Shown: in pieces, positions 1-46,641 of the stretch
Position numbering within the stretch: the stretch's first letter is position 1
Layout of the letters: each line of letters starts with the position of its first letter
From: Styela clava
Taxonomy: Eukaryota
Direction: 5' to 3'
Assembly: GCF_964204865.1 (NCBI RefSeq)
Contig: NW_027556749.1
Location: 1-64,000 of the forward strand
Length of the DNA stretch: 64,000 nucleotides
Program-made: the position numbers and the translations under genes
The notes under the pieces: model-generated
What the model saw: only the letters and a program-made list of their open reading frames with translations
Told to the model about the DNA's origin: nothing
Database searches by the model: none

Positions 1-38
1 CCCTAGGACCCTCAAAATTGCTTGGGATATCCTCGGGC

Positions 39-67
39 TTGACTTTCTCGCGTTCTTGTGATATAAT
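39..67 (+). promoter_or_regulatory. Sigma70-type promoter
   Basis: TTGACT-17 bp-TATAAT with extended TG. Confidence 0.7.
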
Positions 68-119
68 AAAAGGGGGTACCTTTTCACGTTCTCGATCGTT
101 GAGATAAAAAAAAAAGTAC

Positions 120-148
120 TTGACAAAATAAAAATTTTAATATATAAT
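120..148 (+). promoter_or_regulatory. Consensus sigma70-type promoter
   Basis: TTGACA-17 bp-TATAAT. Confidence 0.75.
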
Positions 149-326
149 AAACGGGGAGCCTTTCGCCGGCACAATTCGCACGATTGAACACGTTAAAAAT
201 GGGCTTGCTTTTTCTTCTTTTAATACTAAACCACGTTTAAACTCGTTTAGGCCCTCAAATGGCAATTATTTGAATATTTCAGCGCTACGACTGACACAAT
301 CCGCAAGCTTTCAGATTTCAACAGGC

Positions 327-360
327 AAAAAAAAGACCGGGAACATCTAAGCCCCGGCCC
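327..360 (-). terminator. Intrinsic terminator of the leading minus-strand operon
   Basis: GGGCCGGGGC...GTTCCCGGTC stem followed by T8 on the minus strand, just after 385..693. Confidence 0.8.
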
Positions 361-384
361 TAAATAATATTTATTTATTTATTA

Positions 385-693
385 TTATTTATTATTTGCA
401 CCCTCCTTTTTCATCTTTGCCAAAATCAACCGGATTTTTAAAAATTCAATTTCTTTTTTGGCCTGTAATTCTTTCGCCTCAAAATAATTTAAAAATTTTT
501 TTATAATTTCGATTAAGTCGACCGGCTCCATTTCGAAGCTTGCCAAATTGTTTAAATTATTTATAATTAAATTATTTATAATTTTTTTGGCGTTGTCTGT
601 TTCAAATGTAATTTTTTCGAGATTTTCGAAATCGTTTTTGTTGTCAAGTGTCGAGAAAATGGCCAATAATTTATTTTTTTGCTTTATTTCCAT
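385..693 (-). CDS. Hypothetical protein (102 aa)
   Basis: GGAGG RBS; TAATG coupling to the upstream gene. Confidence 0.8.
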   Translation of the reverse strand: MEIKQKNKLLAIFSTLDNKNDFENLEKITFETDNAKKIINNLIINNLNNLASFEMEPVDLIEIIKKFLNYFEAKELQAKKEIEFLKIRLILAKMKKEGANNK

Positions 694-1382
694 TATTCTG
701 CACCTCCTTCGTCACGTTCGAAATCTTCAAGCATTCGTGCCAAGTTGATTTTATCCGCTAAATCGTTTTGCGTCTCGTCGTCCTGCGTCTTGTTCTCTTC
801 AGATGTTGCGAGGTCGTGGGATTCTTCGCGTATACTTTGCGCGGTAATTCCGCAACTTCTCAAAATTAAATCTTTTCACGTCGCGAAATCTTCAGGCTTC
901 AAGTCTTCGGCTTGAGTGTATCCATTTAACGCGTTCCAAATCTCCCCATCTTCTACCTCGTCGCTGTCGGTGAACAGGTCGCGCGCTCTATCCTCCACAT
1001 CTTCGGTGCAGTAATGTGCCCAATTTAATTTATCATTTAAACCAGTAAAGGAGTTACAAAATTTAATTTGTTCTTTTTTCTCTTCTTCTGCTTCTTTTGC
1101 TTCCTCTTCTTCTTCGGCCTCTCTTTCGTCTTCGTCGTTGTTATTTGGTCAAATAATCACGTATTGCGCCAATTCTACACGGTCCGCGTCGCAGTCTTCA
1201 CGTGCTCCGCTTGTGCATTGGTGGCGGTTATAATTAATTTTTTTTAATAATCGGTTTTTTTCGTCCTTTATGTCTTGATTATCGAAACAGTCCGCCAAAA
1301 AATTATCGATTTTTTTTTTGCTTAAATCCGTACATTTTACGACTTCAAAGCGTCCAAGTCTATTTTTTTTTGTGTGTGTCAT
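693..1382 (-). CDS. Highly acidic protein (229 aa), candidate DNA mimic
   Basis: GGAGG RBS; reads through TGA at 1149; contains NDEDEREAEEEEEAKEAEEE and a D/E-rich C-terminal two-thirds. Confidence 0.8.
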
Positions 1383-1651
1383 TGTGGCACCTCCTCAATA
1401 TTATAATAATAATTAAATATATATTAATTAATTAATGCATTTATCTTTTACGTTTCAATTTAATTATATATTATTATTTTTTTTTTTGTTATTTTTTTTT
1501 TTACTTATTTTTTTTTTAAAATTTTTGCATTATACCACAAACGACAAAAAAGGGGTAAAGTGTTAAAATAATATTATAGAAATTAAAAAATTGATTTTTG
1601 AAAATTTAAAATAAAAATTAAATAAAAAATTGCCAAAAGCTCGCCCAATTA

Positions 1652-1680
1652 ATTTTAACATAGTTTTTTTTTTTTGTCAA
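1652..1680 (-). promoter_or_regulatory. Promoter of the leading minus-strand operon
   Basis: TTGACA-17 bp-TAAAAT with extended TG on the minus strand. Confidence 0.65.
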
Positions 1681-1794
1681 GTTTTTTTTTAAAAATTTTG
1701 AAATTTATTTTTAGACGAAATAAAAAATTTGAAAGAGAAAAAAATTTTTTTATTATTCTCTATGTAAGGACTTATTTTTTTGAAAAGCTTGATT

Positions 1795-2160
1795 ATCTTA
1801 CTGACAGAAAAAAAGGTGATTTTTGCATATGGGACCGTGGGTTAGACTGGAAGAGGTGAATTTTTTTGAGCTAAAACTTTTACAACTTTTCCGGGCTGAA
1901 AAACACGAGTTTTACCTGTCGTAGAACCAATACAGAAAAAAAGTAAAATATTTGCAAACTCTTATGAAAAACAAAAAATATTATACTATTATTACTTATT
2001 TATTTTTTTTTTTAAGCAGTAGTAGAGATAAATTTACTTTTTTAACGAAATGGCTTAAACACTGGGTAAAGTAGACTTTTCGAGGCCGGAAAAGTTATAG
2101 AAATTTTGACTAAAAAAAATTGAGCTAATTTTTAGTAAGATTTAGAACACTCAGTAAGAT
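1795..2160. repeat. Large imperfect palindrome, putative replication origin
   Basis: ATCTTACTGA/TCAGTAAGAT outer pair; arms 1859-1916 and 2065-2122 around an AT-rich core; non-coding. Confidence 0.6.
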
Positions 2161-2278
2161 TTTGACGACTCGCAGGCGTAGAACGACAAAAACACACTGG
2201 CGAAATTTGGAATTTTTTGGAGGTCACAGTAAGGTATCGAATATGATATAATAATAATAGAGAAAAGGAAATAAAAGA

Positions 2279-2371
2279 ATGGAATTACATACATTAAAGA
2301 ATTGTAAAGCAAAAGAACAAAATGCTATTTGCTTATATTGTTTTGTTAAAAAAAATAGAAAGACAAAATAA
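2279..2371 (+). CDS. 30-aa Cys/His peptide (copy 1 only)
   Basis: Follows a TGATATAAT promoter and AAGGA RBS; MELHTLKNCKAKEQNAICLYCFVKKNRKTK. Confidence 0.45.
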   Translation: MELHTLKNCKAKEQNAICLYCFVKKNRKTK

Positions 2372-2413
2372 AAGTATGATATAATAAATATAATAGAAAA
2401 GGAGAAAAGAAAA

Positions 2414-2797
2414 ATGGAAATAGAAAAATACCACAAATTATTAGATGAAAGAAAAGAAAAGATTGGTAAAATATTTGAAAAGATTGGTAAAGAAGCAAAT
2501 AAGTTCAATGATAAAGTAGAATTTACAGGAATTACAATTAACGATTCAAGTGTGTCAAATTCAACATATTACACATTTAATTATCAAAATAAAGAAGACG
2601 ATTGTTTGGAATTGAATTTTAAAGTTAAAGTTTCAGATCATGACAAGCATTTCGGAAATGAATTTAAATTTATTTTTGAAAAATTTACAAGTGAAGAAGA
2701 AAATGAATATTGATTTGAAACATTCGATTTTAATTATTGAAATGATAAAAATTTAATTGCTTGTTTAAAAGAATTTTTGGAAGAAGAATATTATTAA
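2414..2797 (+). CDS. Early hypothetical protein, allele 1 of variable cassette (127 aa)
   Basis: Promoter plus AAGGAG RBS; TGA read-through to TAA. Confidence 0.85.
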
Positions 2798-5392: not shown

Positions 5393-5826
5393 ATTTAAAA
5401 GATACAATTGAAACTTTAATTAATAATACTATCGAAAAAAATTTTGGAAAAGACAGAGCTTTAGAAAAGGGTATTAGAGAAAACGAAGCAGGAGTTGTTG
5501 ATTTCTGAAATTGTTTTGGTCGAACAGCATTACATGTAATAGTTCACGAAGAAAAAAGCGGAAGGTTACATATACGAATTCCAGATACGGGAGACAAATT
5601 GACGCAATGTATTTTTATTAAACAAAATAAAAAAGGTTGAAAAAAATTAGAAGATCATATTATGTTATCACTGAATTATCAAAGAAAAAAATTAAAAGAA
5701 CACATTGAAGAAACTCATAAAAAGATAGCGCGTTTACATGAATTAGACAACCAACGAAGAAAAGATATTGAGGCGTTTTATAAAAAATGGTTTGTACTTG
5801 AGGAGAAAACAATACATGATGAATAA
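5383..5826 (+). CDS. Hypothetical protein
   Basis: RBS; code-4 ORF. Confidence 0.75.
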
Positions 5827-6724
5827 ATTAGATAAATATTATACAAAACAAAAAATAGCTAATAAGTTAACAACATATATATATGCGGTTTTAAAATATT
5901 ATAAAATTGATTATAACAATTTAACATGAATTGAACCTAGCGCCGGCGAAGGAGTGTTTGTTGACGCTTTAGAACAAGTATTAGACATAAAACCTAAAAT
6001 TCTGTGCTATGATATTGATGAAGATTTAAAGAACAAAAGAGTCATTAAACAAGACTTTTTAAAGGTTAATCTAAAGCATTCGGCGAAAAATATAATTTTT
6101 GGAAATCCACCATTTGGTCGATCTGGACAGTTAGCAATTGACTTTATCAATAAGGCTTCAAAAATTGCTGATATTGTTTGTTTTATAGTACCTAATACTT
6201 TGCGACGATATTCAACTCAAAAAAAATTAAATAACGACCTAAAATTGATTGTAGAATTAACTGTTGATCAAAATGCTTTCGAGTATAAAAACAAAACAAA
6301 AAATTTCAATTGCTCATTTCAAATTTGAGTCAATAAAAATCGAGAAGAATTTAAAGACGGAAAAAATTTGAGATTATTAGAAAAACAACCGTTTCGAGTT
6401 CCTTCTGTAAAGACGTTTATTTACAATAACACAAAAAAGACTGTCAAATTTTTTGATAAGGCTAAATACAAGTGGGACGTGGGTATACCTCGACAAGGTT
6501 TTTGCGACTACTCAAAATTAATTACAGATCAAAAAGAGTTAAAGACAACTCAACAGTATATGTTTATTAAATATAATGATGAGTTAGCAAAAAAAGTTGT
6601 TGAGTTAATAGATTTTGAAGAACTGTCACATAGTAATACAATTGTACCAGGTTTTTCGACAACAGATTTTATAAAAGAATATAATGAGATCAGGAAATTA
6701 CAAGGAGGTCATAATTATGAATAA
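5816..6724 (+). CDS. DNA amino-methyltransferase, probably N6-adenine (gamma motif order)
   Basis: Motif X DKYYT, motif I IEPSAGEG, motif IV GNPPF; joins two track ORFs through TGA. Confidence 0.9.
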
Positions 6725-7262
6725 AACACCCATAATTTGCGTTTTTTTAGGTAATGATTCAAAAGAGTTATCAAATACTAGACATAATATTGGTTGACTT
6801 TTTTGCGATTTTATGGCTTTAATAACGGAAAATACATTTATTGAAAAAAAACATTATTATTACTTTAAAGATTACATTTGTACTGGTATTAGTCCAGTTT
6901 ATTTTATTAAATTGAAAACACTAATGAATGATTCAGGAAAGATTTTGAGAAAAATTTGTCAAAAACAAAAATGAAATTATGATCAATTAATTATTTTTGC
7001 CGATAATACGGATTTAAAACTAACAAAATTTAAAATAAAAAATCATATATGTAATAATGGTCATCGTGGAACACACGACATAGTTGAACAATTCAAAACT
7101 AATAAAATTAAAATGTTTTACTTAGGAATAGATAGACAGAAAAATTTAAAACAATGAGTGTTGTCTCAATTTGAGGATAAAGAAATTTTGTTTTTGAACA
7201 AATATATTTTTCCGAAACTTTGAAATAAATTTGAAGAAAGTTTAAAGTTGAATATGATATAA
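6717..7262 (+). CDS. pth: Peptidyl-tRNA hydrolase
   Basis: FLGN...NTRHNIGW, KTLMNDSG, ADNTDL, NGHRG, YLGID and WVLSQF match Pth1 motifs. Confidence 0.88.
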
Positions 7263-9534: not shown

Positions 9535-9628
9535 TTATTGTATTAAAGAACCTAAAGGCACATACTGTTTAGAGTGTTTTTTAAAGAACGAAAAAGAGCG
9601 TAAAAAAAATGTTAAAAAAAGAAATTAA
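9521..9628 (+). CDS. 35-aa CxxC-x9-CxxC zinc-finger peptide
   Basis: MTKCNYCIKEPKGTYCLECFLKNEK...; fills the gap between coupled genes. Confidence 0.5.
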   Translation: MTKCNYCIKEPKGTYCLECFLKNEKERKKNVKKRN

Positions 9629-10268
9629 AAAATTTTGAGATTTAAATAAAATATTGGCGAAAATTGGCAATGTCGAAAATGTTACTGTAAGCCCTAAACT
9701 TGACGGAGTTGGGGCTTACTATGATAAAACATCTAACAGTTTAGTTATATGTCGATCCTCGGCTAGAGTGACAACATTTTCTATAAAAAAAGATGATAGA
9801 GTTGAAGGCTTTGGCGAATTAGTTTTAAATAAAGAGTTTGGAAATCGGCGTGATGTTGTAGGTCTTATTAATAGAAAGTTTTATGATAAACGCCACGACT
9901 TGTTAGAATTTATTAACTACAAAAGAGTTGAAAAAATAATTAAATTGAAAGATTTGAAAAAGTATATTGAACAACAGAAAAATATTGATTTTTACACTGA
10001 TGGTGTGATTATTGAACGTAAATATGCGTTTAAATTCGAAGGACCTAAAAGTTGTGGAACAATAGATAAAATAACAAAACAAATTGGCAAAAAAACGGGC
10101 AAAATTTCTTATATTGCTTGATTAAAACAAAGTATTAAATTGAATGAAATTACTGTCAAGAAAGTTAATTTGTCAACTAATAAAAGTAAATATAAAGTGG
10201 GTGACCATGTCGTTATTGAATTAAAAGGACAAACGGTTCCTATCATAATAAAAAAGGAGAATATATAA
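9609..10268 (+). CDS. Minimal NAD-dependent (LigA-family) DNA ligase-like protein (219 aa)
   Basis: KLDG, GE, NRRDVVG, TDGVII, AFK, IGKKTG and VGDHV..KGQTVP motifs. Confidence 0.8.
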
Positions 10269-10269
10269 T

Positions 10270-10893
10270 ATGAATAAATTTATAGTAGTTGAAGGTATTG
10301 ATTATTCAGGTAAATCAACCTACATAGAAAAATTGAAAAAAAAATATAAGAAAGAAGGAAAAAGTGTTTATGTGACGCGAGAGCCACGAGGAATTAGTTT
10401 TGGCGAATTATTAGCTAAAGAAGTCTTTTTTAATGACAACCTCAAAATTAGTTCGATCACAAAAGCAATTTTGTTTATTAGTGTCGGTTGAGAATTATAT
10501 AATAAAGTATTGGCTAAAAAGTTTAAGAAGTATGATATTGTGATTTGTGATAGGTATATATTTAGTACGTTTGCTTATCAAGTATTTGGAGGTGATAAAA
10601 CAATTAATCAAAATCAATTATTGACAATGTACACTTACGCGATGCCAAAAAATTATTTACCTCACGAAGTACACTGAGTAGATTGTTCGACTGCCGAAAT
10701 TTTAAGACGAGTAAAAATTAGATTACCAGCTAATAATTACGACGCAAAATGTTTAAAGAAAAGTTATGTTAATAAGATTAGAAAAGCCTACAAAGAAACT
10801 TTTGAGTTTTTTACGTATAACACTATCTATTTTAAAAAACGTATCGAATGAAACGTTATTGTGTTTGAAAAGGATGACAAAATTAATGAATAA
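10270..10893 (+). CDS. tmk: Thymidylate kinase
   Basis: FIVVEGIDYSGKST, TREP, ICDRY...AYQ. Confidence 0.93.
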
Positions 10894-11461: not shown

Positions 11462-11840
11462 AAATAATAAAGAAAATAATGATTTAGGGGTATATAGTGA
11501 TGATATTGATATTATGTTAGAAGTTGCCAATGAAGTATTTTGTAGAACAGTATCGTTAAGTTGAAGTACATGACAAAAAGTTCATGGTTATCAGAGTGCT
11601 ACCTTAGTAAAACATTCATCAAAAATGAATACGTCTAAATTGTTAAATACTCGACGAACTATTTTGACATGTAAAGCAATTTGATCACTATCGAAAAATA
11701 TTTTAAAATTGGAAGATAATGATAAAAATAGAATAAAATGTTATAGAGAAGGGTTACGTTTTTATGTTACAGTGTGACCACCTACTATGTCATGATATCG
11801 AGAATTTAAAGGATTTTTAAAGAAATGAAAAAAAAAATAG
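11454..11840 (+). CDS. Hypothetical protein
   Basis: AAGGAG RBS; code-4 ORF. Confidence 0.7.
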
Positions 11841-12367
11841 ATATATTATATAATAAGTATGTTGAAACAAAAGACAAAAAAATTCTAAATAGAATCAAAT
11901 ATGAGATGATGGATATAGCAAAAAAAACATGTAAAGTTGTTTCACATATAAAAACAAAAGGTTATAGTGATCCAAAAACAATGTACAGTTTCTGTTTTGA
12001 ACGGTTTGATAAAATAATAAACGATTATGAACCTACACATAAAACAACGTTGAGTACATATACTGCTATTTGTCTTTGAAATTATTTAAGAAGTAGACAA
12101 TATCATAAAAGTTTAGACATTACAAAATCTAGAATTTATACAACACGATCATTAGATACTTTTAATAATGACAAATTAAAGTTAGATTTAAAGAGTATTT
12201 TAGGCGATACTTTTGATTATAAATTAATATGTGACTATATTGGACTCAATGGAAAGAAATTAAAAAATAAAGAATTAGCTAAAATATATAATAAACCTTT
12301 AGGTTCTATAAAAACAAGACTACGAACTATTGAAAAGGAACTTAGAAAATATTTTAAAAATAATTAA
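11825..12367 (+). CDS. Sigma-70 family RNA polymerase sigma factor (180 aa)
   Basis: Region 2-like FDKIINDYEPTHKTTLSTYTAICLWNYLR; region 4 HTH KNKELAKIYNKPLGSIKTRLRTIEKELR. Confidence 0.82.
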
Positions 12368-12402
12368 ATCTTTTTTAGTGTTTTTGTACATATATATATA
12401 TG
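12354..12402 (+). promoter_or_regulatory. 49-bp element, putative phage-sigma promoter for the tRNA array
   Basis: Perfect inverted copy at 46113-46161, upstream of the late operon. Confidence 0.7.
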
Positions 12403-12609: not shown

Positions 12610-12685
12610 GGGCCTGTAGCTCAATAGGGAGAGCATTTGGTTTGCAATCAAAAGGCAGTCAGTTCGAATCTGGCCAGGTCCACCA
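12610..12685 (+). tRNA. tRNA-Ala(UGC)
   Basis: Cloverleaf, G3:U70, encoded CCA. Confidence 0.95.
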
Positions 12686-32940: not shown

Positions 32941-34414
32941 CTGTCTTGTTTCCTCCTAACCCGTCATTTGATGTTCTCATTTGAGCATGTGATTTTGGAT
33001 TTGAATCGCGTGAATTAAAGTTACTCACTTGATTAAATTTTTTCAATTTGCCGTTTTGAGCATCATTCATAATTTCATTTTTTCCTTTCTCTTTTTCAAA
33101 GTCTAAGAATTGTTTTCTATTTTCGTCAGCATCTTTGTCAACTAATTTTTTCATTTCAACACTTGATGCTCGGCCAATTTCTTGAACGTTACTAATAGTT
33201 GTTATTCTATCTTGGAGTCCATTATTTAATTTAGCAATTTCAGCATTGATATATTCGATTGTATTTTTATTATTTCCATCTCTAATAGCGAAAGAAAAAT
33301 TTACATCACCAAAACCAGCACAATAGAACATTTTTTTCAAGAATCTATTAATCAGTTGATTAAACATCATTCTTTTAGAAATAATAGTTTTAATTTCGGC
33401 TGCAGAAACATTTTTAATATCTTCAGCTACGTTTGCTTCTAACTTACTATTCAAACTAATTCCAATTAAAGAATACAATAAGTGAAATTTTTCGAGCATA
33501 GTTTTTTGGAGACTTTCTCAGTTGATGTTTGGGTGAATAGCTTGAATAGCTTGATCTTCGGAAGGAAGTTCACTAACCAAAACAGCTCGTGGAAGAGCCA
33601 TGTTATTTTTAGTTCTCTTGTCTCAATCTTCTAATGTGTCGGGGTCTAAGTTTCCAACGTACATGATAGTACGGTTATTAAGACGTTCTTTTTCAATTCA
33701 ATCATAGAAATTAACGATGTCTTTAATAACGTTAGTACATTTTAATCAGTCGGGTCTAGGTGTTTGAGATGTGTGAAAAAAAGTTGTGAAATGTTCGAAC
33801 GGTATAATAGGAATTTTTCTACCTTTAATTTCTTTGTAAAAGGGGTTTCTGTCATTTTGAGGTTTGAAGTAGTAGTTAGGAATCATAGCACTTAATTCAC
33901 CTAGAGCTATCTCTTTACTATTATAGATATATGTTCTTTTGATTCGACCGTCATGTGTTCATGTTTCTCTAATAATAATAGGAATAACTGTATGTGTTTC
34001 TTTTTCGGCAAATGTTGAAATACTTACAATTTCTTCAAAACTCTTTTGTTGTCATATAATAAATTTTGGACGATTTAAATATACTCTAAATCCTTGATCG
34101 TCTTCAATAGAGTTTTCTATTTTATCAAAACCTAAAATCGCCTCACCATATAAAGATGTTTGGAAAATTAATTTAGATAAGAATTTGTCTCATTGAGCAT
34201 TAACTTTAAATGTATTTCAAAACTTTAGTAATTTTTCGTTGTCAGTATCAAATACGTAATGTCTATTATATATAGCATGTGTTAAGTGCTCAGCTATAAC
34301 TATTGGAAAATCACAAAATTTGTTTAAGTGATTAGTAGTTCTTTCACCATTTTTATCGTGTAACATGTTTCAATACTTAGAAACTTTATTAATATCTAGT
34401 TCTCAACTTTCCAT
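32924..34414 (-). CDS. Portal protein (A118/SPP1-like)
   Basis: 496 aa; portal-like N-terminal pattern (IVIAEHLTHAI...QTSLYGEA) and virion-module context. Confidence 0.7.
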
Positions 34415-34425: not shown

Positions 34426-34590
34426 TTATTCCTTTTTTGTTTTTTTACAGTCACATGAAATCTTTTTACAGATGTCATTTTTTTGAGTTTTTGTAGCATA
34501 TTTATTAATAATATAAATTGCCACTTCGTCTATTTGTGATTTCGCAAAACTCATTACGAAACTAATTATCATTTTTAATGTTTTGTTCAT
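34426..34590 (-). CDS. Small hypothetical protein
   Basis: AAGGAG RBS; 54 aa. Confidence 0.6.
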   Translation of the reverse strand: MNKTLKMIISFVMSFAKSQIDEVAIYIINKYATKTQKNDICKKISCDCKKTKKE

Positions 34591-34939
34591 TGTTATTTTC
34601 TCCTTTGTTATTTTTGTTAATAACTTCCATAATTTTTTCTAGCTTGCCATTAATTCTTTTATCGATTCATTTTTTTAAATCTTCACTTTGTTTTTCATTC
34701 GCCTTTTCAACAGCCAAATCTTTACTTATATATTTCCTGTCATACATGTAAGCCAGAGTAACACATATTATTACAGTGAGTGCTATAAGCGCAGGAATAG
34801 AAACAATTAAAGCTGAATAAATTGTTTTATTATTACTTTCACTATTAGCAAAGTGGATAAATTGCGACAAGCCAAAACCTCCTACGGTTGCGCTTATCAT
34901 TTTTCAATATATTTTATCTCAATTCATAAATTTTATCAT
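34562..34939 (-). CDS. Membrane protein, holin-like candidate
   Basis: Hydrophobic segments and charged C-terminus, in the late operon. Confidence 0.6.
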
Positions 34940-34949: not shown

Positions 34950-37900
34950 CTAATGTCCGCTCTCTCTTCTAACTGATAAGTTAAATTTTGTTGGGAAGAC
35001 CAAATTATAATTACCATTAGCGTTAAATGTTCATTTTATATCGTTTAAAGCAACATTATTTCTCATATGGTAGTAAACGTAAAATGGATGACGATAAACG
35101 TCGTTATTTGTTAATCATCATATATCTCCTCAATATAATAAGTCGCCAGTTGCTTTTGTTCATTTAATATTCCCTTTAATATTAACACCTGTTTTTGTTG
35201 CGAAATAGTGGTTGTAAAGATTTGCGTTCAATTGTCATGGACTCGCTGATTTTAACGTTGAGTGAAAATATGTTTTTGTTGTTGATGAGGTTGCGTTGTA
35301 ATTGTCAGTGGTTACTAAATATTGAAAAGTTTTGTTTGTTGTGTCGCCAGTTTGTTTTGGTACTAAAAATGAATGTCATCTAACATTAGACGTATTAAGA
35401 GGCGGTTCGATATGAATATCAAAAGAATACAATCCATCTTTAAATTCTTTAGAATTACCAGTATTTAAGGTAACAAAAAACGAGTTACTAAAGTATTTTA
35501 ATTGGGATCCTACTCTGTCAATGATTGGAAAACTTGTTTTTTTTCCAACTCCAGCGAAGTAAGTGTTAGCTTCAATGTTGTTTGATGAATCCATTTTTGT
35601 AATTGTTGAACCAGTACCTATAACGTCTACTCATGGGTGAGGCGTATGTAACATTTCAAGACGGCTACGTGCTGTGTCAAATATTTCGGTGCTACCTAGA
35701 TCTTTAAATTCGTCATCGGTTATATCATCATTACCAATATTTTCAATTAGTTTTTGACCTTCCACTTTTGCTTCATATTGTGTAATTAAATATCTGAATT
35801 GTGATTCTGTAAGACCGTGTGCTTCAGAATATTGTTTAGGTGAGTTTTCACCAACTGTTGAATCATAATCATCTGTTCTTTTACTTCATTGTAAGTCAAC
35901 ATTTGCTAAAACAGTTTCTATTTCCGATACACTAATAGGTTTATAATAACCGTAAGAAGCATATAATTGACTTCTAGAATTGACATGAGTTATTCGTTCT
36001 AATATAGTTTTTGTGTCTTTATAATTTAATCCAGAAATGTATGTTTCAACTTTTTCGAATGGAAGATACTTATAAATTTTTAAATGTTCGCTATCACGAA
36101 AAAAATATGAGGTATCTATTTTATAAAGTCGTGATGAGTAAGTGACAGGTGCTTTTAATATGTTAATCAATTTATCTTTTTGTGAACCTGTCGGTCTATC
36201 GGTTCATCTTAAACCTGTAGGGTTATTATCCTCATCAAAAGGTTCCATTTCTTGATCAACAATTTTTGTTTCTAGAGGGGCCAATCGATTTTCTAATAAT
36301 ATATCTACTTGATGCTTTGTATAATTAGCTCCAATTAGAGAAAAGAAATTCTTGAAATAATCATAACCATCAATTCCAAAAAATTTTCCTTTTTGATTAG
36401 TGAAAACTGGTATTGAAGGAAAGTTTGATCTTGATGGGTCTAGATAAGTGAAACGATTTTCTCATGATTGAGCAATTTCGTCTTGTGGGTCGGGATTTGA
36501 AATAACGTGATTTTGATAATCTTCAACAAAAGAATACACAGAATTAACATACTTTATGCTAAGATTAGCACCATCAGTATTAAAAGGTTCTTCTACGAAT
36601 TGACCGTGGGATCCAATTAAGTCTGAGCTTCCATCTTTGCTAAATTTTATAACAGCATAATTTCTTAGTAAATTAATACAGTATAAACTAGGATCAACAA
36701 TATTAGCAATAATATATAATTCATCATCTTGAACAAACAAGTCATAAACCTTGTATGTATCAAACTTAGTCATGTCAAGATCAGGTACTTCGGCTCTTAT
36801 GAAGTCAATTTGGTCGTCTCTCAACTGTTCATTTCAACCATGAAAAGATTCAATTGACGCGTTATTAACAGCTTTCACGCTTAGAGATTTGTCAGCTAAT
36901 AAGTCATAAAATTCATCTTCTGTTAAATGATTCAATAATGAATATTTTTCAGGAGTACTTGCTATGTTTAGTACGTTAGTTGCCCGAGTTGTGTCAACGT
37001 CTCTAAATTCTTTATAAATTTTTCCTAAATCAGATCTTTTTACATGAATAATATGACTTAATACACTAGTAGTTCCATCTTTTCTTATGTAATTACTTAA
37101 TGTATAGTTAGAACCACATAGATTATTAATTCAAGTCAATAAAGCAAAATGTTTTTGATAATCTGTTAAATCATTTCAATCAGTAGGTCCTCTGTAATAT
37201 TGTCAAATATCACGAATTACACAACTTTCTTCTTTGAAATTACAAATTTGGTAAATATCAACTTTGTCATTTATATCAAGAGAAAGAGGTTGCGAAATTA
37301 TATTACTTCCATATCCTTCTTGAACAAGACTATAATATTCAGCTTCTGTATTTAAAACAGTAACTAAAGTTTGAAGCTTCTCAGTAGTTGGAACAGTTGT
37401 TCAAGGAATAGTGTCTCTGTTTAATATTAAATCTTCTGTTCTGAGTATTCCATTAAATTTTGCGTCGATTTGAGGTTTGTTATATGTATCTGCTATTTTA
37501 GCATATAATTTGTGGTTAATTTCATCTGGTAAATTAGTAAGGGCTTTAAATTCTCTAAGAAGATTGAAAAATTCAGTTTGAGATAGACTGTTATAAGCAG
37601 AATAAAATTTAGGAGCACTAGCTCATACATTTGGACTACTAGTACTTTTATAATATCGTCCACTATCAATCAATTTTTGAATATCCCCAGTTCTTCAATA
37701 AATAGGTTGAACATCATTATCATAACTTGTTCCTAAAATGTCATTTATTCTATAAATTCTTTTTAGTACAGTAGATAATTCATCTAAAACATCATGTTTA
37801 ATACCATCTTTAGTAAAAGGTACTCGTTTATCTATATAATCATCATAAGCTATTATATAAGCTGTTTTGTGATTATTTTGACTATGATTACCATATCAAT

Positions 37901-40900
37901 GATCTGGTTCACTTAAAACCGCTAATAATTTTTCACGTTGAGATGCTGTAGGTACTTCTTCTCATTTCAATCCTGTAGGATTTGTATTAACATCATAAGG
38001 TAATAATTCAATATTAGTTACCTCAGTTTCTAATTCTGATAAACGATTATTTAACTGAGCGTCTATTTGTTGACGAGTATATATAGTATCTTTTGTAGCA
38101 AAAAAATTTTTAAGATACTTAAATCCATTAATACCAAACATTTTTCCTTTTAAATTTGTAAATACGGGCATTGTTGGAAAATTTGAAGCTTCTGGTACAT
38201 TATAATTAAAACGATTATTTCAAGTACTTGTATCATAGTTATCATCTTGATCTGGGTTTGAAATAACATGATTGTAACCATCTTCCAAAAAAGAATAAGT
38301 TGAGTTAACATAATTTAGACTTAAATTAGCATTGTTTTCATTGAAAGGTGCTTCAATTGTTGTAACATAAGTATTTCCTGTAACAGCTCGAATATCACCA
38401 ACAGTAAATTTTAAAGGAGCAGTATTACGTAATAAATTTAAAGCTATAATACCTGCTTGTGTCGCATATTTATAAGAAACAATATAAAGGCTATCGTTAT
38501 AATCAAATAAGTCATAAATTTTATATTCATTTAATTTGTTTTCGTCATAGAAGGAAACTTCTCCACGAATAAGATCAATCTGTTCATTTGTAAATGGAGC
38601 ATTTCAATCTTCAAATGACTCGATTGTAGTATGTGATTTTATATCTGTTTTTAAAGCAAAAAACTTTTTTAAATAACTATACGCTTTAACACCAAAAATC
38701 TTCCCCTTTCTGTTTGTAAATACTGGTAGTGTAGGATAGTTTGAATATTCTGGTGTTATATATTTTAATCTAGTTTCTCAATCGCCAAATACTGATCCAC
38801 CTGGTATTGGGGTAGAAATAGCCTGATTATCGTGGTCTTCAATTCAACTGTAAATTGAGTTTATATATTTTAAGTTTAAGTTTGCCAGCTCAGTATCATA
38901 AGGACCCATAATTGCTTTTACGTGATCTCCTTGAATAGCTATTAACTCTGCAGTTTTATTAAATATTCTAACAGCTTGGTTTCTTAACAAATTAATAGCA
39001 AATATATTTTCATTATTTAAAAGACGAGCACAAACGAAAACCTGATCACCAAAAGTAAATAAATCTAATACTTTGTAATCATCAAATTTGGCTCAATCAA
39101 AAGCATGAATATCTTCTTTAATAATATCAATTTGTTCGTCTGTCAATTGTGTTTCTCAATCAATAAAAGAATCCATTGACACTTTAGTTAAGTTTTCAAT
39201 TTTCCCTCTAAGTAAGTTATAAAAATCTTCTTGTTGTAAATGATTTTTTTCGCTATAAAGTTTTGGTGTTTTAACAATACCCTCTTCTTCGGCTACATCA
39301 CTATCATTATCTGTTTCAAAATGTTTGAAAAGCAAAGCTAGATCTGAACGTTTTATATGTACGATGTGACTTAACTCTTCAACTTCGCCATTTGGTTTTG
39401 TGTAATTACTTAATACATAAGTTGAACTACATATATCATTAATTCAAGCTAATAAAGTTGCTCGTTTTTGATACTCAGTCAAATCGTCTCAATCACCAGG
39501 TCCTTTGTAGAGACTTCATGCGTCTTTAATAGCATAAGTTTTTTCGCCAAAGTTAACGATTTTATAGATATTTATTTTGTCGCCAACATTTAAACTCAAA
39601 GGTTGTGTTGCGTAGTCACCTCCATACCCTTCTTCTTCTAAAGCATAATAAGTTTCAGGAATTTTAAGAGTTGATAATAAGGCTGTTTTTTGAGCTTCAC
39701 TTGGTGTTTTTTCTCAACCTAATGTTAGTTCTGACAATAAAGGATTTGTAGTTCTAAAAATAGAATCAATTTTTGTATCAATTTGAGGTCTAGTATATGT
39801 GTCTTTTTTTGTAGCATAAACGGTTTCGCCTGTTTCGATTTGGTGTAATTTAGCAAAAGAATCATTTAAAAAACCTAGAGCATTTACACCATATATAGTA
39901 CCATCTTCAGTAGTGAAAATAGGAAATGTTGGTAAATGACCTTCTAAGAATGTAAATCTTTTATTATAACTTTCAACAATATCTTCAGGTGTTGAGTGAG
40001 AAATTGGATGCGTTTTAACATATTTAATTCAAGATAAAATAGAACTAATGTATTGTAAATTTAAATTTGCGCCTCTTGTATTATAAGGACTTGGTAAAGT
40101 ATCGTCATATGGAATAATACGTACTTTATTACCATTTCTTCTAATTTCAAAAGGTGATAAATTTTTTAATAATGGAGCAATAATTCAGTCTACATTATCT
40201 GGTGTTTTACTAACAAAAATATATACTTCACCATCATAAAAAATTTTATCAAAAAGTTTATAGTCACTATATTTAGTAGAATCATAATTTTTAACATTTC
40301 TAGCAATATCATCAAGTTGAGAGTCGGTTAGTTGTTGCTTCCATCCTGCAAAAGAATCTAATGCAACATCAACACTACTAGATTTTACCATATTATCAAC
40401 ACGTGTGATAATTGTGTTTTTAACAAAATGATTATAAAACTGCTCTTTTGTATAACCATATTCGTCAGATCATTTTTGTGGTGTGCTGAAATTAGACTCA
40501 AATGAATAAACTGGTGGTTGTTGTGAATTTATAAAATATTCATAAAGTTTTCCTAAATCGCTTCTTCTAATAGGATTAATATGATCTAATTTTGTAACAC
40601 TACCTCCAATATGTTCAAAGTCACTTCTTTTATAACTAGATCCACATCTTCTATTTACAAATTTTAAAGCTTCATCGTGTTTTTGATCTTCAGTTAAGTC
40701 ATCTCAATCTGAAGGAAATTCAACAGTATCTTTTTTTCATAAACTTCAAATATCTTGAATAAAAGTTTGTGGTATACCAAAGTTATTAAATTTATAAAGA
40801 TAAACTTTTTCTTCTGTACGGAGCGTTAAAGGATTATGAGCTCAATCACTTGATCATTTTCCAACGTTTAATCCATAAAAGGTTTCGGGGACTTTAAAAA

Positions 40901-43406
40901 CGTCAGCTAAAACTGCTCGTTGGTCGTCTAATGGTACTGATGTTCAAGGTAAAGTAGTTTCGTTTAAAAGTAAATCATCTAATCGTAATAAACCTTCAAG
41001 TTTACTATCAATTTCTGCTTTATTATATGTATCTCTTTTATAAGCAAACGTTATATTATTATGTAAAATAGAATGTATAGTGTTAAGCCCTGAATCTGAA
41101 TATAACAATTGTTTAACATCACCATTAACTTGTTTCAAATACATTTTACCATCTTTTTCAAAATAATAAAGTGAATCCAAAAATGTTGATGTTCTGTCGT
41201 CTGATGCTAAACTTTCAATTAAAGGATGATGTAAAACTGTGCTATGATTATCAGCACCTTTTATTGTTGGATCTATTAATGCTATTCCAGTGTCAGGAGC
41301 ACCTGTTTCAAAACCAACAATTGTATGACCCGCTGTATAAAAAGGAACAAATCCATGTTCTGTATCTTCGCCATTATAAACACTTGTAAGTAAGTCAATG
41401 AAAAAATTTTCGCCCGAAGTATCAACAGTTGGCGCGTGTTTTTTAACGTACTCAAGAGCTAAAGCAGTTTCTTTAACTGTCAAAATACCTTTAGTTCCAT
41501 TTAGTTCGTCGGGATGTAATGTACTTGTATGTCTTCAAACTTGACGTTTATATTTGTTTATAAGATAAGTATAAGTACTATCTTTAGCAAATGTAATATA
41601 AATTTCACCACTATAATAAACTAAATCATTTACTTTTAAGTTACTTAATGAATTAACATCAGTATCATCATAAATTACAGAAATTAGTTTATCTAATTCA
41701 ATCAACTCAGCAACTTGACTGTGTGATACATGATTTTCAATTTTAAAAACGTCAGTCTGTGATGGACTTATTTCATCTTTTTTTACAAAAATACTTGATA
41801 AGTACTTAGTAGCATTAATACCTATAATAGTGTTACCTTTTCCATTAATAAATACTGGTAACATTGGTGTATTACTATCAAGAAATGAAAATCTAGAATT
41901 ATAATCTAATTGTGTTCCTTGATTAGTTGGGTCTGAAATTGGGTGATCATATATATCTTTAATTCATGTTAAAATAGAATTAGTATAATGTAAATTTAAA
42001 TTAGCGTTATTTACGTTGTAAGGGCTAGGTATACTAGAATTATAATCAAGTAATTGACCATTAAAATTAGCTCCTTGTTTTACAATCGTAATAACTGGTT
42101 TATTTCTATATAGTGGAACAACTGTCAATTGTGATGTCGATACATTTGTAACAACATAAGTATCACTACCATAAATAAATTGGTCAAATACTTTATATAT
42201 ATCAAATTTAGTTAAGTCGAATGTATCAGTTGATGTTTGAAGATGTTCAATTTGTTCATCTGTATATTGAGCTTCTCAGTCACCAAAAGATTCTATATAA
42301 CTTTGTTGAGACGAAATTTCTGGTATTTCGTGAGTAGGATGTTCTAGATTTTCATCTAATAGATTAGTACTTTTTAAATACTCAGTTATTAATCTATTCA
42401 TGTCAGCTAATCCAACTTTCTCATTTCAAGCACGAACAAATTCTATGTAAGTGATTGGTCGTAATTCGAAGTTAGACAACCCTTCTATAATTTCACTATC
42501 TTGGTCGTTTACATTAAAAGGTGTCGTACAATTTTGCCCTATGGGATCTATTAATGTAGCTTTTTTAACTAATCCTGCAGCCACTAATAAATTAACAACT
42601 TCTTTTGGTAAATAACCAATAGGTCATGAGTTGGCTACATTTTCAGAAAGTCCATTAACAGATTCAGAAACTTGGCGCCCTTCAAAATTGATTCCGTGTT
42701 GAATATAATAAGCAGATAACAATACTAAAGCTTTACGTAAAAACTTAACTTTGTCTTTAGTAGTATGACTTAATAAAGTAACATAAGATGTAATTTTACC
42801 TTCTGTTACAGCGTCAATACGTTCATAAGCATTATAAATAATACGTTCGTATTGTTCAGTTTTATATTTTCTATTAATTAATGCTTCAACATCTCTAGCA
42901 TATATATAAGGTGCCGACTCGGCTCTTGAATCGTTTAAACTTTTCTTATATAAAATAATATTACTACTAGAAATCAAACTATCAATTATTAATTTAATAT
43001 CACTATTTTCTTTATTATACTCAATATTAAAATTTGCTATTGACTTTAATTCGTTATCAATATCACGTCGTGTAACTATAGTACTAAAATCATTATTGTT
43101 AGCTCTCTTTATAAAAGGATAAACATTTTCATAATTAATAACCCTTTCATAATAAGTTTTCCTTAAATTTAATCATTGTAAAAAATCATTAAAATTTGTA
43201 GGTGCTATAAGGTCATCAGTAAAAAGTGCTATAGAAGTGTTATAATTTAAAGTATATGTATTAATAGTTGATATTTCATTAGTTACTTGTATTAATAATT
43301 CAGTTAAAGTTTTGTTTTCACTGTTATTTATAATACTTGACTTGAAAGTTTCAATATTGTCAAAAATAGAGTTATATTTAGTTTGAAATTCTAGTAATGT
43401 TGTCAT
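34950..43406 (-). CDS. Giant repeat fibre with N-terminal head-tail-adaptor-like domain, ~2818 aa
   Basis: Nine track ORFs in one frame; alternating A/B repeats; AYERIDAVT...LRKALV...LLVAAGL segment. Confidence 0.8.
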
Positions 43407-43408
43407 AA

Positions 43409-44011
43409 TTAATCGAGTTTATTTAACTCCGCATGTAATTTTTTCTTTTCGTCAACGTCTATATATGTTGAATTTATTGTATCTAATACTTTATTAAAAG
43501 CATTTCTTGGTAAAAAGATATTTTTTAAAAGTGAATCTAGTTTATTTTTCATTTCTGCTTGAACATGTTCACAATACATATTTGTTTTAATAATAATAGG
43601 TAATGTTTCATATTGTCAAGAAGCTCTAGTTTCACGTAAATGTTGAGATAATTCAACAAGGTCAGATAACACATCAACTACAATATAGTGAATAGTATTA
43701 TCTTTTTCATCCAAAACGTCTGAAATTTTTAAATAAGCTTTAGTAATTTGTTTATAATCTTTAATTACTTCTTGTAACGCATCGTTGGCTCTAATGTTGA
43801 TAGTTCCTTTAGGTGTGACTTTAAGAACTGTAGTTTCCGCTATTTCAATAGCTGTTTCATTTCTACGATTATTATTAGCATTATTAACAACGGCATTTTT
43901 TAAAATTTTATTTTGTTTTTCTAACAAACTTAAACGTTTTTCTTGTTGTTCTAATAATTTTAAACGTTTTTCTAAATTTTTAATATTAATTTTATTAATT
44001 TGATTTTTCAT
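43409..44011 (-). CDS. Hypothetical coiled-coil virion-module protein
   Basis: GAGG RBS; code-4 ORF after the capsid gene. Confidence 0.75.
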
Positions 44012-44074
44012 ATTTTTCCTCTGTGAGGCCTTTTTGATAAATAGAAGACCTCTAAACTATTTAGACCTTATATT

Positions 44075-45391
44075 CTAAGATCCACCAATGTCATAAATTG
44101 TTTTACCTGCTGGTAATTTAATACCATACAAGAATTTTTGACATAATCCCTTTCATTTAGAGATTCCATACAAAGCTTTCAACCCTGTAACAATATTACC
44201 TGTTTGTGGAATTATAGCTGATCACACATAAGGTGCCCCCGCTAATACCATAACTGGTGAATTTTTTTCAGGCGAAATGTATTGTAAGATCGCAATATAT
44301 TGAGATAAGTCTGCTCCTAAATCTCCAGTAATTGCTGTACTATATGTTGGCATATAAACTGCGTTAGCTGGTGACGAAGGAATAGTAGCTAATCCTGTGT
44401 TTGCGTCTAGTGGAAGGGTGTCTGCAGCCGAAGTACTTGTAACTTCTGAAAGACTGTTAGCAATTTCAGTATAAGTAGCTCCAGGTTTTCCTTTAGGTCA
44501 GATTTTACCTAAAAGGATTGATACTTCAGCTTTCAAACCTCCAATTTTCAAGTTATTATCCTCGAATTCTTGATAGTTGCTTGTATCTAATCCAACTTTG
44601 GCGTTTACGATAGCTAATAAATTTTTGATGTGGGGTGCTACAATCAAAACTAAATTAGTTCCCACTTTACCATAAAGACTTGTACGTGTTTTCAATGATT
44701 GAATCATGTTTAAGAATTTATGAAGGAAAGTGATTCCCGCAAAACGTGAGTCAGCATTTGTGGCTGCAATATCTTCGTCTGTAAGTTGTAAAACGTTACT
44801 TTTAGCTTCTGAATCAGTTTCAAGAGCTTCGATAACTGCTTTAAAGTAATGAAGATTAACACGATTTTTATAATTACTTCATCTTTGTGCCAAAAGAGCA
44901 GAATAGACGAATCCACTATGTAAAAATAATGATTTGTCTAATTGTTCCATAGGATTGAATTCAAAGTGCGAAAATGTCATTCCAATAGTTTTTTTATCCA
45001 CTCCTGGATATGTTGGATTGACAGGTGCTGTTGAATTGAACCCATTAGAAAGAGCTAATTGGTGTGAATATGATGAAGTTCCATGCCCAGATGCTAAAAC
45101 TCATGTTTTTTGGAGAGTTCCATTTTGATCTCTGTGCATGTTAACAATCCCTAATTTGAAAATTGTGTCATAATCAATATTTGGAATTGTTGGGATTTGA
45201 GATAAATTGATTGATTGAACAATTTCATTACCTTTAAATCCTTGAATATAGAATAACGAATGATTTGTATCGGTAGATTCCGCTGCAATTAATTGTGATT
45301 CTGTTAATGTTTGCCCTGGAATTCCTTCAATAGCAGATTTAGTAGTCGCATTGATAGTTCCAAAAGCTTGGTCTTGACTTAGTGTTGCCAT
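44075..45391 (-). CDS. Putative major capsid protein (438 aa)
   Basis: Follows a scaffold-like gene; strong RBS; size and composition. No motif-level proof. Confidence 0.65.
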
Positions 45392-45418
45392 AATTAATAT
45401 TCTCCTTTATTATTTTAA

Positions 45419-46027
45419 TTATTTGTTGCTCAAGTCATCATCAATAATAATACCAGTTTGGGGATCTACTCTACGAGTAGCTTGTCTTATATATTCATTA
45501 ACGGGTTGGTTTAAATTTGTCACATTAGGCACATTAGGTGTCTTTTGTGTCATGTCCCCATTATAATTAGTAGTTGGGAGCGGTTCAGCCTTTTGAACAA
45601 ATAAAGAACTTAATTCGGTTTTTAAAACTTTAAACTCGTTAATCAAATCTTTGTCTTCTAACTGAGCAGATTTATTGCCTAATAAGGTCAAAACATGTTT
45701 CATTTTAGATTCATCGCCACCTTCTTTCTTAAATAATTCCTTAATGTGGTTATGTCTTAATGATGTTTGAGCTTGTATGAACTTCCCTTCAAGATCCTTA
45801 TGAGCGAGCTCTCTATTTTTCAAATTTTCGCCAAGAGTGTTTTTGATTTTCTCTAAGTTTGAAATTTGGTCGACAGCTTTTTCATATTGTTTCTTCAAAG
45901 TATCATACTTTTTTTCTCACATATTAAACTCAGCTACACTTACTTTAGTGTCTTTGTCTGTACTTGTGCTTTTCTCAGTATTTTGCACTTCTTGTGTTTC
46001 CACAGTTTCTTTTATGTTATTTTCCAT
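45419..46027 (-). CDS. Putative capsid scaffolding protein
   Basis: First late gene; coiled coil plus low-complexity tail. Confidence 0.65.
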
Positions 46028-46112
46028 AAATTTCTCCTATTATATAATAAGAAGGGATCTTAAAGTTGATGACGATAAGGAGGTACTAGTCGAAATAAAC
46101 TTTATACCCCTT

Positions 46113-46161
46113 CATATATATATATGTACAAAAACACTAAAAAAGATTTAATTATTTTTAA
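46113..46161 (-). promoter_or_regulatory. 49-bp element, putative late promoter
   Basis: Exact reverse complement of 12354-12402; points into the virion operon. Confidence 0.72.
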
Positions 46162-46641
46162 TTATTTTGAATTATTTTTAAAAACATCGAGTTTTACGTC
46201 TGAGAGCGCGAGAATAAAAAATCTTACTATAAGTTGAGGCTGTGACAAATTGAGTTACCCTAGGACCCTAAAAAAAGCTTGGGATATCCTCGGGCTTGAC
46301 TTTCTCGCGTTCTTGTGATATAATAAAAGGGGGTACCTTTTCACGTTCTCGATCGTTGAGATAAAAAAAAAAGTACTTGACAAAATAAAAATTTTAATAT
46401 ATAATAAACGGGGAGCCTTTCGCCGGCACAATTCGCACGATTGAACACGTTAAAAATGGGCTTGCTTTTTCTTCTTTTAATACTAAACCACGTTTAAACT
46501 CGTTTAGGCCCTCAAATGGCAATTATTTGAATATTTCAGCGCTACGACTGACACAATCCGCAAGCTTTCAGATTTCAACAGGCAAAAAAAAGACCGGGAA
46601 CATCTAAGCCCCGGCCCTAAATAATATTTATTTATTTATTA

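Follow-up and report, generated by a model that had tools for sequence, protein, structure and literature searches.

A complete 46-kb tailed phage genome that reads TGA as tryptophan, with packaging genes distantly related to those of Spiroplasma phages

Few tailed phages of Mollicutes that use genetic code 4 have been sequenced, and the described ones are small or temperate. According to a 2024 review, the main obstacle to finding more Mollicute phages is the lack of reference genomes (PMC13375369). The closest described systems are the Spiroplasma poulsonii phages NSRO-P1 and NSRO-P2 together with MSRO-P1 (MaM-2019a; OL689230, 19.7 kb), which are presumed to be short-tailed phages of the SpV3 type. 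Their particles are described as holding circularly permuted, headful-packaged genomes in which no genes for a tail, lysis or an integrase were recognised (10.1101/2021.12.09.471767). The phages P1 (Delislevirus), MAV1, phiMFV1 and MGyu-2021a also have code-4 hosts, and their genomes are 12-24 kb in size. The MAgV1-like phages (M. agalactiae MAgV1, 34 kb; M. felis vB_Mfe_PM329, 33.6 kb) usually encode a Xer recombinase and a prohead protein or protease and are temperate. Xer is reported as absent in one degraded member, and the tail of PM329 is long. Acholeplasma phage L3 is given as short-tailed with 39 kb, and a prophage-like region of M. bovirhinis as 53.5 kb. Further literature was also drawn on (PMC11004492, PMC13304146, PMC12341145). 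This study was concerned with a window of 64,000 nucleotides, positions 1 to 64,000 of contig NW_027556749.1 in the Styela clava assembly GCF_964204865.1, in which bases 1-46257 form one complete phage genome unit. The explanation favored here, to which we assign a probability of about 0.72, is that the unit is the whole genome of a Caudoviricetes phage that does not integrate, probably has a short tail and infects a wall-less Mollicute using code 4 (Mycoplasmatales/Entomoplasmatales in the broad sense). This phage would be deeply related to the SpV3-type phages, with a genome 2.3 times the size of theirs.

The unit (1..46257) carries 48 called protein genes and 12 tRNAs, has 28% GC and is 91% coding. 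It has a circular map, and the sequence resumes at 46258. A preliminary description, made from the letters alone, had placed a 46-kb tailed phage at 1..46257, and both points hold: the sequence restarts at 46258, the coding fraction is 0.91, and TerL, portal and head-tail adaptor mark a tailed dsDNA phage. Within the window no host DNA lies beside the unit, which closes on itself. The remainder, 46258..64000, which the preliminary description had not mentioned, is a partial second copy that represents a strain variant of the first. No mismatches were found over 20-1689 and 3020-17656, and the copies diverge at approximately 1690-2950, where the stretch 1690-2253 shows 61 mismatches along with 7 gap positions. 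The first rightward early gene is swapped as well, since it encodes 127 aa at 2414..2797 (+) in copy 1 and 185 aa at 48554-49111 in copy 2 (29% identity over 137 aa, E 0.039). The simplest reading is that the window is a circular-map phage for which two strain variants were probably assembled together, about 1 1/3 times round. The rightward arm, up to 24438, holds early and replication genes, and the structural operon occupies the leftward arm, from 46027 to 24439.

The genes of the unit open only if TGA is a sense codon, as had been stated in the preliminary description, which also proposed that the genes be called again under alternative codes. Counted with open reading frames (ORFs) of at least 90 aa over 1-46257, coverage was 0.31 under table 11 but reached 0.92 when TGA was taken as sense, compared with 0.34 for TAG as sense; the control with TAA as sense gave 0.72, which reflects how easily AT-rich DNA opens. 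Of 14,124 codons, TGA accounts for 214 and TGG for 10. The best PHROG bit scores were higher under code 4 than under code 25 (TGA as Gly) in eight of the nine annotated genes, for example 89.1 vs 79.2 for TerL and 147 vs 136.3 for the DNA methyltransferase (MTase), and RuvC was the sole gene scoring against code 4 (23.0 vs 23.5 bits under code 25). In the internal repeats of the giant 2818-aa protein, TGA aligns with Y, F, I, L, M and W and with the singletons S, E, P, T and H, and Gly is never opposite TGA. The two sites on which tryptophan had originally been proposed, SFAGW with TGG near 40341 and SFIDW with TGA near 39156, are both present; as the 2818-aa gene contains a single TGG, however, they make up just one column of the alignment. 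With a profile of 83 terminase relatives, W ranked first of 20 residues (288.0 bits) and G 17th (273.9 bits), a preference that is partly circular if the relatives had been translated with table 4. A 12-sequence profile of peptidyl-tRNA hydrolase (Pth) placed F first, W only 8th and G 19th. Together, codon counts, profile scores and repeat alignments make the earlier assignment of TGA to Trp rather than Gly well supported as a computational result; on this evidence TGA stands for Trp genome-wide, with TAA and TAG as stops.

The link to Mollicutes extends beyond the code because the only named relative of the packaging genes is the Spiroplasma poulsonii phage MSRO-P1. TerL (24439..25920, -) is a divergent protein of the PBSX/SPP1-like type (phrog_2, 6e-25) that matched none of 50,697 phage records by tblastn and nothing in a word-index protein search. 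An exhaustive search of 1.84 billion cluster representatives returned 98 matches at 18-32% identity. The profile of this family matches solved large terminases, and 48 of 55 aligned relatives match TIGR01547 (PBSX terminase), a model not matched by the phage's own TerL. For one family member, the best match among the 50,697 phage records was the Spiroplasma NSRO/MSRO TerL (3e-21), and the closest relative of the phage TerL (P0013) matched only C-terminal parts of unrelated phage terminases. With the 83-relative profile, the MSRO-P1 TerL scored 341 bits, the phage TerL 288 and two Firmicutes PBSX TerLs 137 and 122; with a profile of the eight nearest relatives, the values were 293 bits for the phage TerL, 93 for MSRO-P1 and 57 and 42 for the Firmicutes proteins. 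A quick tree of 34 rows (30 chosen of the 98 matches, the phage TerL, MSRO-P1 and two outgroups) placed the phage in a clade of seven rows with a Shimodaira-Hasegawa-like approximate likelihood ratio test (SH-aLRT) support of 95, and the same clade received 99 in a tree of 55 rows.

The portal protein (496 aa; 32924..34414, -) had no tblastn match in the phage collection at E 1 and no direct profile match. Aligned with the MSRO-P1 portal, whose record is annotated as SPP1-like (HHpred 98.4%), it showed 21% identity over 488 columns and a score of 135 vs a maximum of 66 in 200 shuffles. The adjacent 1807-aa post-portal virion protein (27517..32940, -) matched the 1071-aa protein behind the MSRO-P1 portal (phmmer 1.5e-6), and none of 200 shuffles reached its score. 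The adjacency of portal and post-portal protein is conserved with MSRO-P1. When the phage was compared with 98 ORFs of MSRO-P1, P1, MAV1, phiMFV1 and MGyu-2021a, six pairs had E<=0.01, and the two pairs with E<1e-5 both involved MSRO-P1. On these sequence comparisons, TerL, portal and post-portal protein are distantly related (approximately 20% identity) to their MSRO-P1 counterparts.

One gene of the structural operon encodes a 2818-aa fusion protein (34950..43406, -) with a head-tail adaptor domain at approximately aa 171-280 (phrog_541, 5e-5, profile positions 7-122 of 129), followed by repeats and a unique C-terminal domain. Five type-A repeats of about 175 aa are interleaved with type-B repeats of about 200 aa. 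The preliminary description had called this gene a fibre; its internal repeats are real, but the gene is an adaptor-repeat fusion. A relative in ENA (P0111, 1542 aa on an 8.6-kb contig, apparently cut off) is 69% identical over 1216 aa. It is an orthologue with the same adaptor-first design, so that this lineage has been sampled at least once more, but it starts directly with an adaptor-like domain (25% identity) and does not have the first type-A repeat. In addition, a free type-A repeat gene of 217 aa without a transmembrane (TM) segment lies in the non-structural arm (15062..15715, +), and its product is 34-40% identical to each of the five repeats (E ~1e-13). We can only guess that this free copy serves as a chaperone or superinfection blocker; MAV1 Vir, an unrelated lipoprotein, is described as a precedent for exclusion in mycoplasmas (PMC7466169). 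A model of the type-A repeat from seven sequences had a mean predicted local distance difference test (pLDDT) score of 65, with about 80 over aa 11-80 and fair confidence for two thirds of the domain from its N-terminus, and no Foldseek match at E<=0.001 in PDB or BFVD. The best BFVD row was a 72-aa uncharacterised Proteus phage protein (E 0.019), and the VIA matches (best Z 4.5) were to many small Tudor/SH3-like barrels, which were set aside as background. The modeled fold is therefore without a clear structural match, which does not show that it is new. The adaptor-repeat fusion, the free type-A copy and the paired 50-bp element considered below are all new relative to the preliminary description.

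The other structural genes were assigned largely by their place in the operon. The first is a scaffold-like coiled-coil protein (45419..46027, -; PF06810 E 0.0047, below the cut-off), followed by the probable major capsid protein (438 aa; 44075..45391, -), which is called on position and size, after a scaffold-like gene as in MSRO-P1. No profile, tblastn (phage collection, E 1) or fold support was obtained for the capsid candidate, and a single-sequence model with pLDDT 31 was discarded. The probable terminase small subunit (25921..26313, -) is likewise called on position and size, directly upstream of TerL as in MSRO-P1. Capsid, scaffold and small subunit are thus positional assignments. The 1807-aa protein, with one hydrophobic stretch at aa 624-642, is a candidate tail or membrane-penetration protein. 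A basic 424-aa protein (26238..27512, -; pI 10.2) has a weak KTSC domain on one segment (PF13619 E 0.0018, below the cut-off), had a pairwise score with MSRO-P1 not above shuffles, and is a candidate DNA-binding ejected or core protein. All 50 ORFs were scanned against Pfam, PHROGs and NCBIfam at E<=0.05. Scans of whole proteins can hide domains, as happened with the adaptor, so 23 pieces and minor ORFs were rescanned against Pfam and PHROGs. No tail tube, sheath or tape measure was found in the 50 ORFs or in the pieces, and the virion was probably short-tailed, as far as the genes suggest. Weak Pfam matches on short segments (such as toxin-related OB and receptor-binding models, E 0.007-0.05) were treated as noise.

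The comparison with described phages showed both likeness and difference. Shared with MSRO-P1 are code 4, the TerL family, a homologous portal followed by a homologous giant protein, the absence of a recognised lysis gene or integrase, and, by position, the gene order scaffold-capsid-x-connector-membrane. Unlike MSRO-P1, the phage encodes a family B DNA polymerase (PolB), a helicase-type ATPase, a ligase-like protein, thymidine kinase (TK), thymidylate kinase (Tmk), Pth, an MTase, a sigma-like protein and 12 tRNAs. The connector protein has 2818 aa here vs 392 aa with only a short extension in MSRO-P1, and the terminase genes stand at the end of the structural operon here and before the portal in MSRO-P1. 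Supported counterparts were found for only 3 of the 22 MSRO-P1 genes, and the genome is 46 kb vs 16-22 kb in the group, whose members share most of their genes (RecT-type module), so the phage falls outside the SpV3-type group. The MAgV1-like phages, compared by description only, are like this phage in using code 4, in size class and in having a DNA polymerase, primase, helicase, terminase and portal. However, none of their Xer recombinase, prohead protein or protease, temperate habit or long tail was found here; for Xer and integration, this holds for the 50 ORFs and a unit without host DNA. The phage collection, in which neither TerL nor portal had a tblastn match, may lack these prophages. 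With P1, MAV1, phiMFV1 and MGyu-2021a, no convincing protein is shared (48 proteins vs 77 ORFs, two short matches, E 5e-4 and 3e-3). The gut phages described by Borges et al. as recoding TGA, with code-4 members in clades such as Agate and Jade, likewise read it as Trp and have low GC, but they bias TGA to late genes, whereas TGA is uniform here and no code-change module was found. The size contrast with known Mycoplasma phages drawn in the preliminary description stands for P1, MAV1 and phiMFV1 (12-19 kb) and was overstated in view of MAgV1, PM329 and the 53.5-kb region; 46 kb is at the upper end of the described range, not off scale, and is a modest surprise. No description of the phage or its lineage was found in open-licence literature; viral metagenome catalogues were outside the search and may hold a relative. 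No close described relative appeared among phage records, GTDB or the TerL tree either, which agrees with the earlier suggestion of a new lineage. On the features tested, the phage appears to work like a virulent podophage outside the SpV3-type, P1, MAV1 and MAgV1 groups, and it probably represents a family-level lineage.

The late programme may be controlled by a phage-encoded factor. A sigma-70-like protein (11825..12367, +) matched four NCBIfam sigma models at E 0.001-0.019 and nothing relevant in Pfam, PHROGs or PDB; this weak assignment makes it a candidate late transcription factor. A 50-bp element is present exactly twice in the unit, with 0 and 1 mismatch, and the next best site has 17 mismatches. 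Copy 1 (12353..12402, +) overlaps the end of the sigma-like gene approximately 200 nt before the tRNA array, and copy 2 (46113..46162, -) lies about 85 nt before the first structural gene. The array (12610..13715, +; ARAGORN; Rfam at E<=1) contains 12 tRNAs: Ala UGC, Val UAC, Thr UGU, Ile UAU, Asp GUC, Tyr GUA, Pro UGG, Ser GCU, Asn GUU, Lys UUU, Arg UCU and Gly UCC. The amino acids served by these tRNAs are enriched in late vs early genes (Mann-Whitney p=0.013; Fisher p=0.065), a result weakened by being a post hoc test on 20 amino acids. We infer that the element is a candidate late promoter, read by the phage sigma factor, that would co-express tRNAs and virion genes. No tmRNA or Rfam RNA other than the tRNAs was found by ARAGORN and Rfam.

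The scans of whole ORFs, pieces and minor ORFs identified no lysin or peptidoglycan hydrolase and no integrase, as the preliminary description had noted. The 125-aa membrane protein (34562..34939, -) has one strong TM segment, a further apolar segment upstream and a charged C-terminal tail, sits where MSRO-P1 has its TM genes, behind the connector, and had no holin profile match in Pfam or PHROGs. It is a candidate holin-like lysis protein. The proposal that it is the sole exit rests on its hydrophobic segment and charged tail, the MSRO-P1 slot and the presumed wall-less host. A lytic lifestyle with holin-only lysis would follow from these features, and a lack of lysis genes and integrase, also described for the 19-kb Spiroplasma phages, does not alone establish the earlier label of lytic phage.

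The alternatives differ in whose code is used and in how the phage lives. TGA occurs in 45 of the 48 genes (35 of 38 early and middle genes, 10 of 10 late genes), at 15.9 per 1000 codons on the + strand vs 14.5 on the - strand, and the TGA-bearing genes include the first ones behind the TGnTATAAT promoters at 2244, 2377, 3845, 3870, 7255 and 7565. There was no suppressor tRNA by ARAGORN or Rfam, and no release factor 1 (RF1) or tryptophanyl-tRNA synthetase (TrpRS) among the 50 ORFs; in particular, none of the 12 tRNAs is the tRNA-Trp(UCA) that had been reported missing. Since TGA is present in early genes and these factors were not found, the host itself should read UGA as Trp, and dependence on such a host is most likely. 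TGA-recoding gut phages of standard-code hosts are described as concentrating TGA in genes for structure and lysis; they may encode RF1, TrpRS or a suppressor tRNA, the last being present in only 35% of code-4 recoded genomes (10.1101/2021.08.26.457843). Because of this last figure, absence of a suppressor alone proves little, and a phage of walled, standard-code Bacillota that switches TGA to Trp during infection and has an unrecognised lysin is a precedented alternative. The tRNA-Gly is closest to metagenome-assembled genomes (MAGs) of gut Bacilli among the matches listed, and the named phages that best match PolB and MTase infect walled hosts. Nevertheless, we regard such a recoding phage as very improbable, given the TGA in early and middle genes behind host-type promoters, the near abandonment of TGG, the lack of a code-change module, the lack of a lysin in whole and piecewise scans, and packaging genes that are kin to those of a Spiroplasma phage. 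A code-25 phage of Gracilibacteria or Absconditabacteria is close to refuted. Such phages are described as also having low GC and genome-wide TGA (10.1101/2021.08.26.457843), and RuvC scored slightly better under code 25, but Trp would drop to 10 of 14,124 codons, eight of nine profiles favor code 4, and the repeat columns are aromatic or aliphatic and never Gly. A different alternative keeps the code-4 Mollicute host and makes the phage a chronic or carrier-state one, plasmid-like or budding. The related 19-kb Spiroplasma phages likewise have no recognised lysis genes or integrase, the holin call rests on position and hydrophobicity, and a review lists several type 3 Spiroplasma viruses as released by budding and presents the Mollicute phages so far described as temperate, many of them chronic (PMC13375369). 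On the other side, no repressor, partition or recombinase match was found in the 50 ORFs, and a close-relative scan of GTDB genomes found no copy. The typical equipment of virulent phages that take over the cell includes nucleotide kinases, a tRNA array, Pth and a sigma-like factor, and a chronic phage is considered unlikely.

Several results weigh against a virulent phage of a wall-less Mollicute related to the SpV3 type. No host was matched: TerL had no match in the GTDB species genomes (close-relative scan; 17 pattern matches, 0 confirmed). The tRNA-Gly pattern occurs in GTDB at no fewer than 120 loci (about 160 estimated), of which at least 119 are not Spiroplasma and by title are mostly uncultured gut Bacilli and Clostridia, and the best identity among the matches listed (89%) is to uncultured gut Bacilli. 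In the TerL tree, the seven-row clade is sister to, and not within, the 25-row clade with MSRO-P1, in a tree with long-branch warnings and two outgroups. Capsid, scaffold, small terminase subunit and connector did not score above shuffles with MSRO-P1. Most of the structural sequence is too divergent for profiles, so that a novel lysin or recombinase could be missed, and the calls of sigma factor and holin are themselves weak or made from position. The wall-less Mollicute host of the preliminary description thus has the code and the MSRO-P1 kinship of the packaging genes in its favor and remains unmatched. The comparison of tRNAs with genomes, which had also been proposed, gave the gut Bacilli as closest and one Spiroplasma sp. 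MAG locus at 78%, which alone among the matches listed has the phage's unusual tRNA-Gly anticodon arm. This tRNA-Gly(UCC) (L062, OZ245361.1 523249-526319, on a 609-kb chromosome) lies in a locus open only under code 4 and may be a weak lead to the host lineage. The other genes did not point to a host. Pth was 28-29% identical to 12 hits, generic and too divergent for a host call; Tmk was 25-33% identical to many taxa, including two Mesomycoplasma records (32-33%, with about 70% of the length covered); the TK matches were weak; and the tRNA array gave only generic matches of 70-80%.

For the favored phage of a wall-less, code-4 Mollicute, an infection might proceed as follows. At the head-tail junction, the adaptor-fused repeat protein would extend as long arms and bind to the surface of the host, and the 1807-aa protein would pass the DNA through a single membrane, there being no wall to cut. 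Host RNA polymerase would fire the TGnTATAAT early promoters, and the host would read UGA as Trp at once. Replication would then be carried out by the phage's own polymerase. The sigma-like factor would activate both 50-bp elements, turning on the structural operon and the tRNA array together, while Pth would keep the tRNAs circulating. The PBSX/SPP1-type terminase would fill heads from concatemers, as the circularly permuted map suggests, and the small membrane protein alone would open the cell. A broader proposal is more doubtful and is put forward tentatively: an undescribed family of virulent, short-tailed Mollicute phages with no wall-degrading enzymes, single-membrane-protein lysis, a phage-sigma late programme expressing tRNAs together with capsid genes, adaptor-fused receptor-binding arms of 2,500 residues and a free intracellular copy of the arm repeat as assembly chaperone or superinfection blocker. 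Code 4 and a missing lysin are expected for a wall-less host and are unsurprising alone. The genome shows a large, self-sufficient, apparently non-integrating design, and its TerL opens a family of at least 98 clusters related to the Spiroplasma phage terminase. It also makes the entry and exit of a tailed phage in a wall-less cell testable, with the 1807-aa protein, the adaptor-repeat arm and the 125-aa protein as candidates, and supplies a candidate pair of phage sigma factor and late promoter that would work in code 4.

The preliminary description had also called the phage self-sufficient, and it does have replication genes of its own. PolB (782 aa; 20532..22880, +; phrog_1252, 7.7e-26) matched 63 phage records, none over 80% of its length. 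Its C-terminal extension of about 200 aa (22251-22880) had no credible profile match and contains a DxD motif and clustered Cys/His, which we take to suggest a primase and zinc-binding module. Next to it are a primase/helicase-type ATPase (22873..24438, +; phrog_7601, 2.4e-8; phrog_864 'DNA primase', 3.5e-4), presumably D5/SF3-like, and a PD-(D/E)XK exonuclease with a RuvC-like resolvase (19395..20532, +; phrog_298, 2.1e-19; phrog_827, 1.5e-4). A minimal DNA ligase-like protein (9609..10268, +; 219 aa; PF03120, 3.2e-6; TIGR00575, 1.6e-7, partial) has a KxDG motif and a LigA-type OB fold and is far shorter than LigA; no NAD-binding, zinc-finger or BRCT parts and no PDB sequence match were detected. 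The nucleotide kinases are Tmk (10270..10893, +; TIGR00041, 1.2e-30, above the cut-off) and TK (16649..17248, +; PF00265, 2.3e-12). Pth (6717..7262, +; PF01195, 9.9e-30; TIGR00447 above the cut-off) aligns its catalytic motifs GN, RHN, MN, D and GH with solved enzymes. The type II-like MTase (5816..6724, +) has an NPPF motif (PADLOC MTase_II, 1.9e-61; phrog_5172, 1.2e-42), with a best phage match of 39.5% from a Helicobacter phage, and probably protects the phage from host restriction. From sequence, the calls of TerL, PolB, exonuclease, Tmk, TK, Pth and MTase are firm, and those of the helicase-type ATPase, RuvC, ligase-like, scaffold and sigma-like proteins are moderate or weak.

The divergent early control region (1383..2413) has host-type TGnTATAAT promoters and varies between the copies. 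To its left, two early genes encoding 102 aa and 229 aa (385..1382, -) lie behind an extended -10 site at 1537, and neither protein had a meaningful family match. The 229-aa protein (693-1382, -) is acidic (pI 4.45) with a strong ribosome-binding site (RBS) and is possibly a DNA-mimic anti-restriction factor, with no profile support. Repeated promoter/RBS blocks (ATGATATAATA, AAGGAG) precede early genes and could permit cassette exchange. Depletion of TGCA (50 observed vs 133 expected), CTTAAG (0 vs 9) and the GCNGC-type words GCCGC/GCGGC (0 vs 10 expected) in 1-46257 suggests avoidance of host restriction sites and may be of use in predicting the host.

Several minor observations concern the rightward arm. 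Three small early membrane proteins (4575-5082 and 7278-7601, +), two with two TM segments and one with one TM segment and a coiled coil, are candidates for exclusion or lysis-timing factors. A small paralogous family of 70-104 aa (4304-4597, 14542-14856, 14850-15062 and 15705-15974, +) shows 25-38% identity among the three longer members. A 300-aa protein (18162-19064, +) with Q/N/P-rich low-complexity ends, a tandem repeat at 18756-18954 and no profile match sits where a single-strand-binding protein would. Two sub-threshold ARAGORN candidates for tRNA-Trp(TCA) were rejected, one at 29899-29971 that is antisense inside a gene and very AT-rich, and one with a low score at 44498 inside a gene, neither with Rfam support. 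The tRNA operon has hairpin-forming, GC-richer spacers at 12405-12605 and 13505-13645 (+) without a Rfam match, the second of which has CCA-like motifs at its end and may represent the remains of a tRNA. Lastly, the tRNA-Ile with anticodon UAU (12853-12928, +) is of a type described as TilS-independent from Mycoplasma mobile (PMC3575796). ATA makes up 385 of 1230 Ile codons in the phage, and position 33 of this tRNA is C where U is usual, so its function is uncertain.

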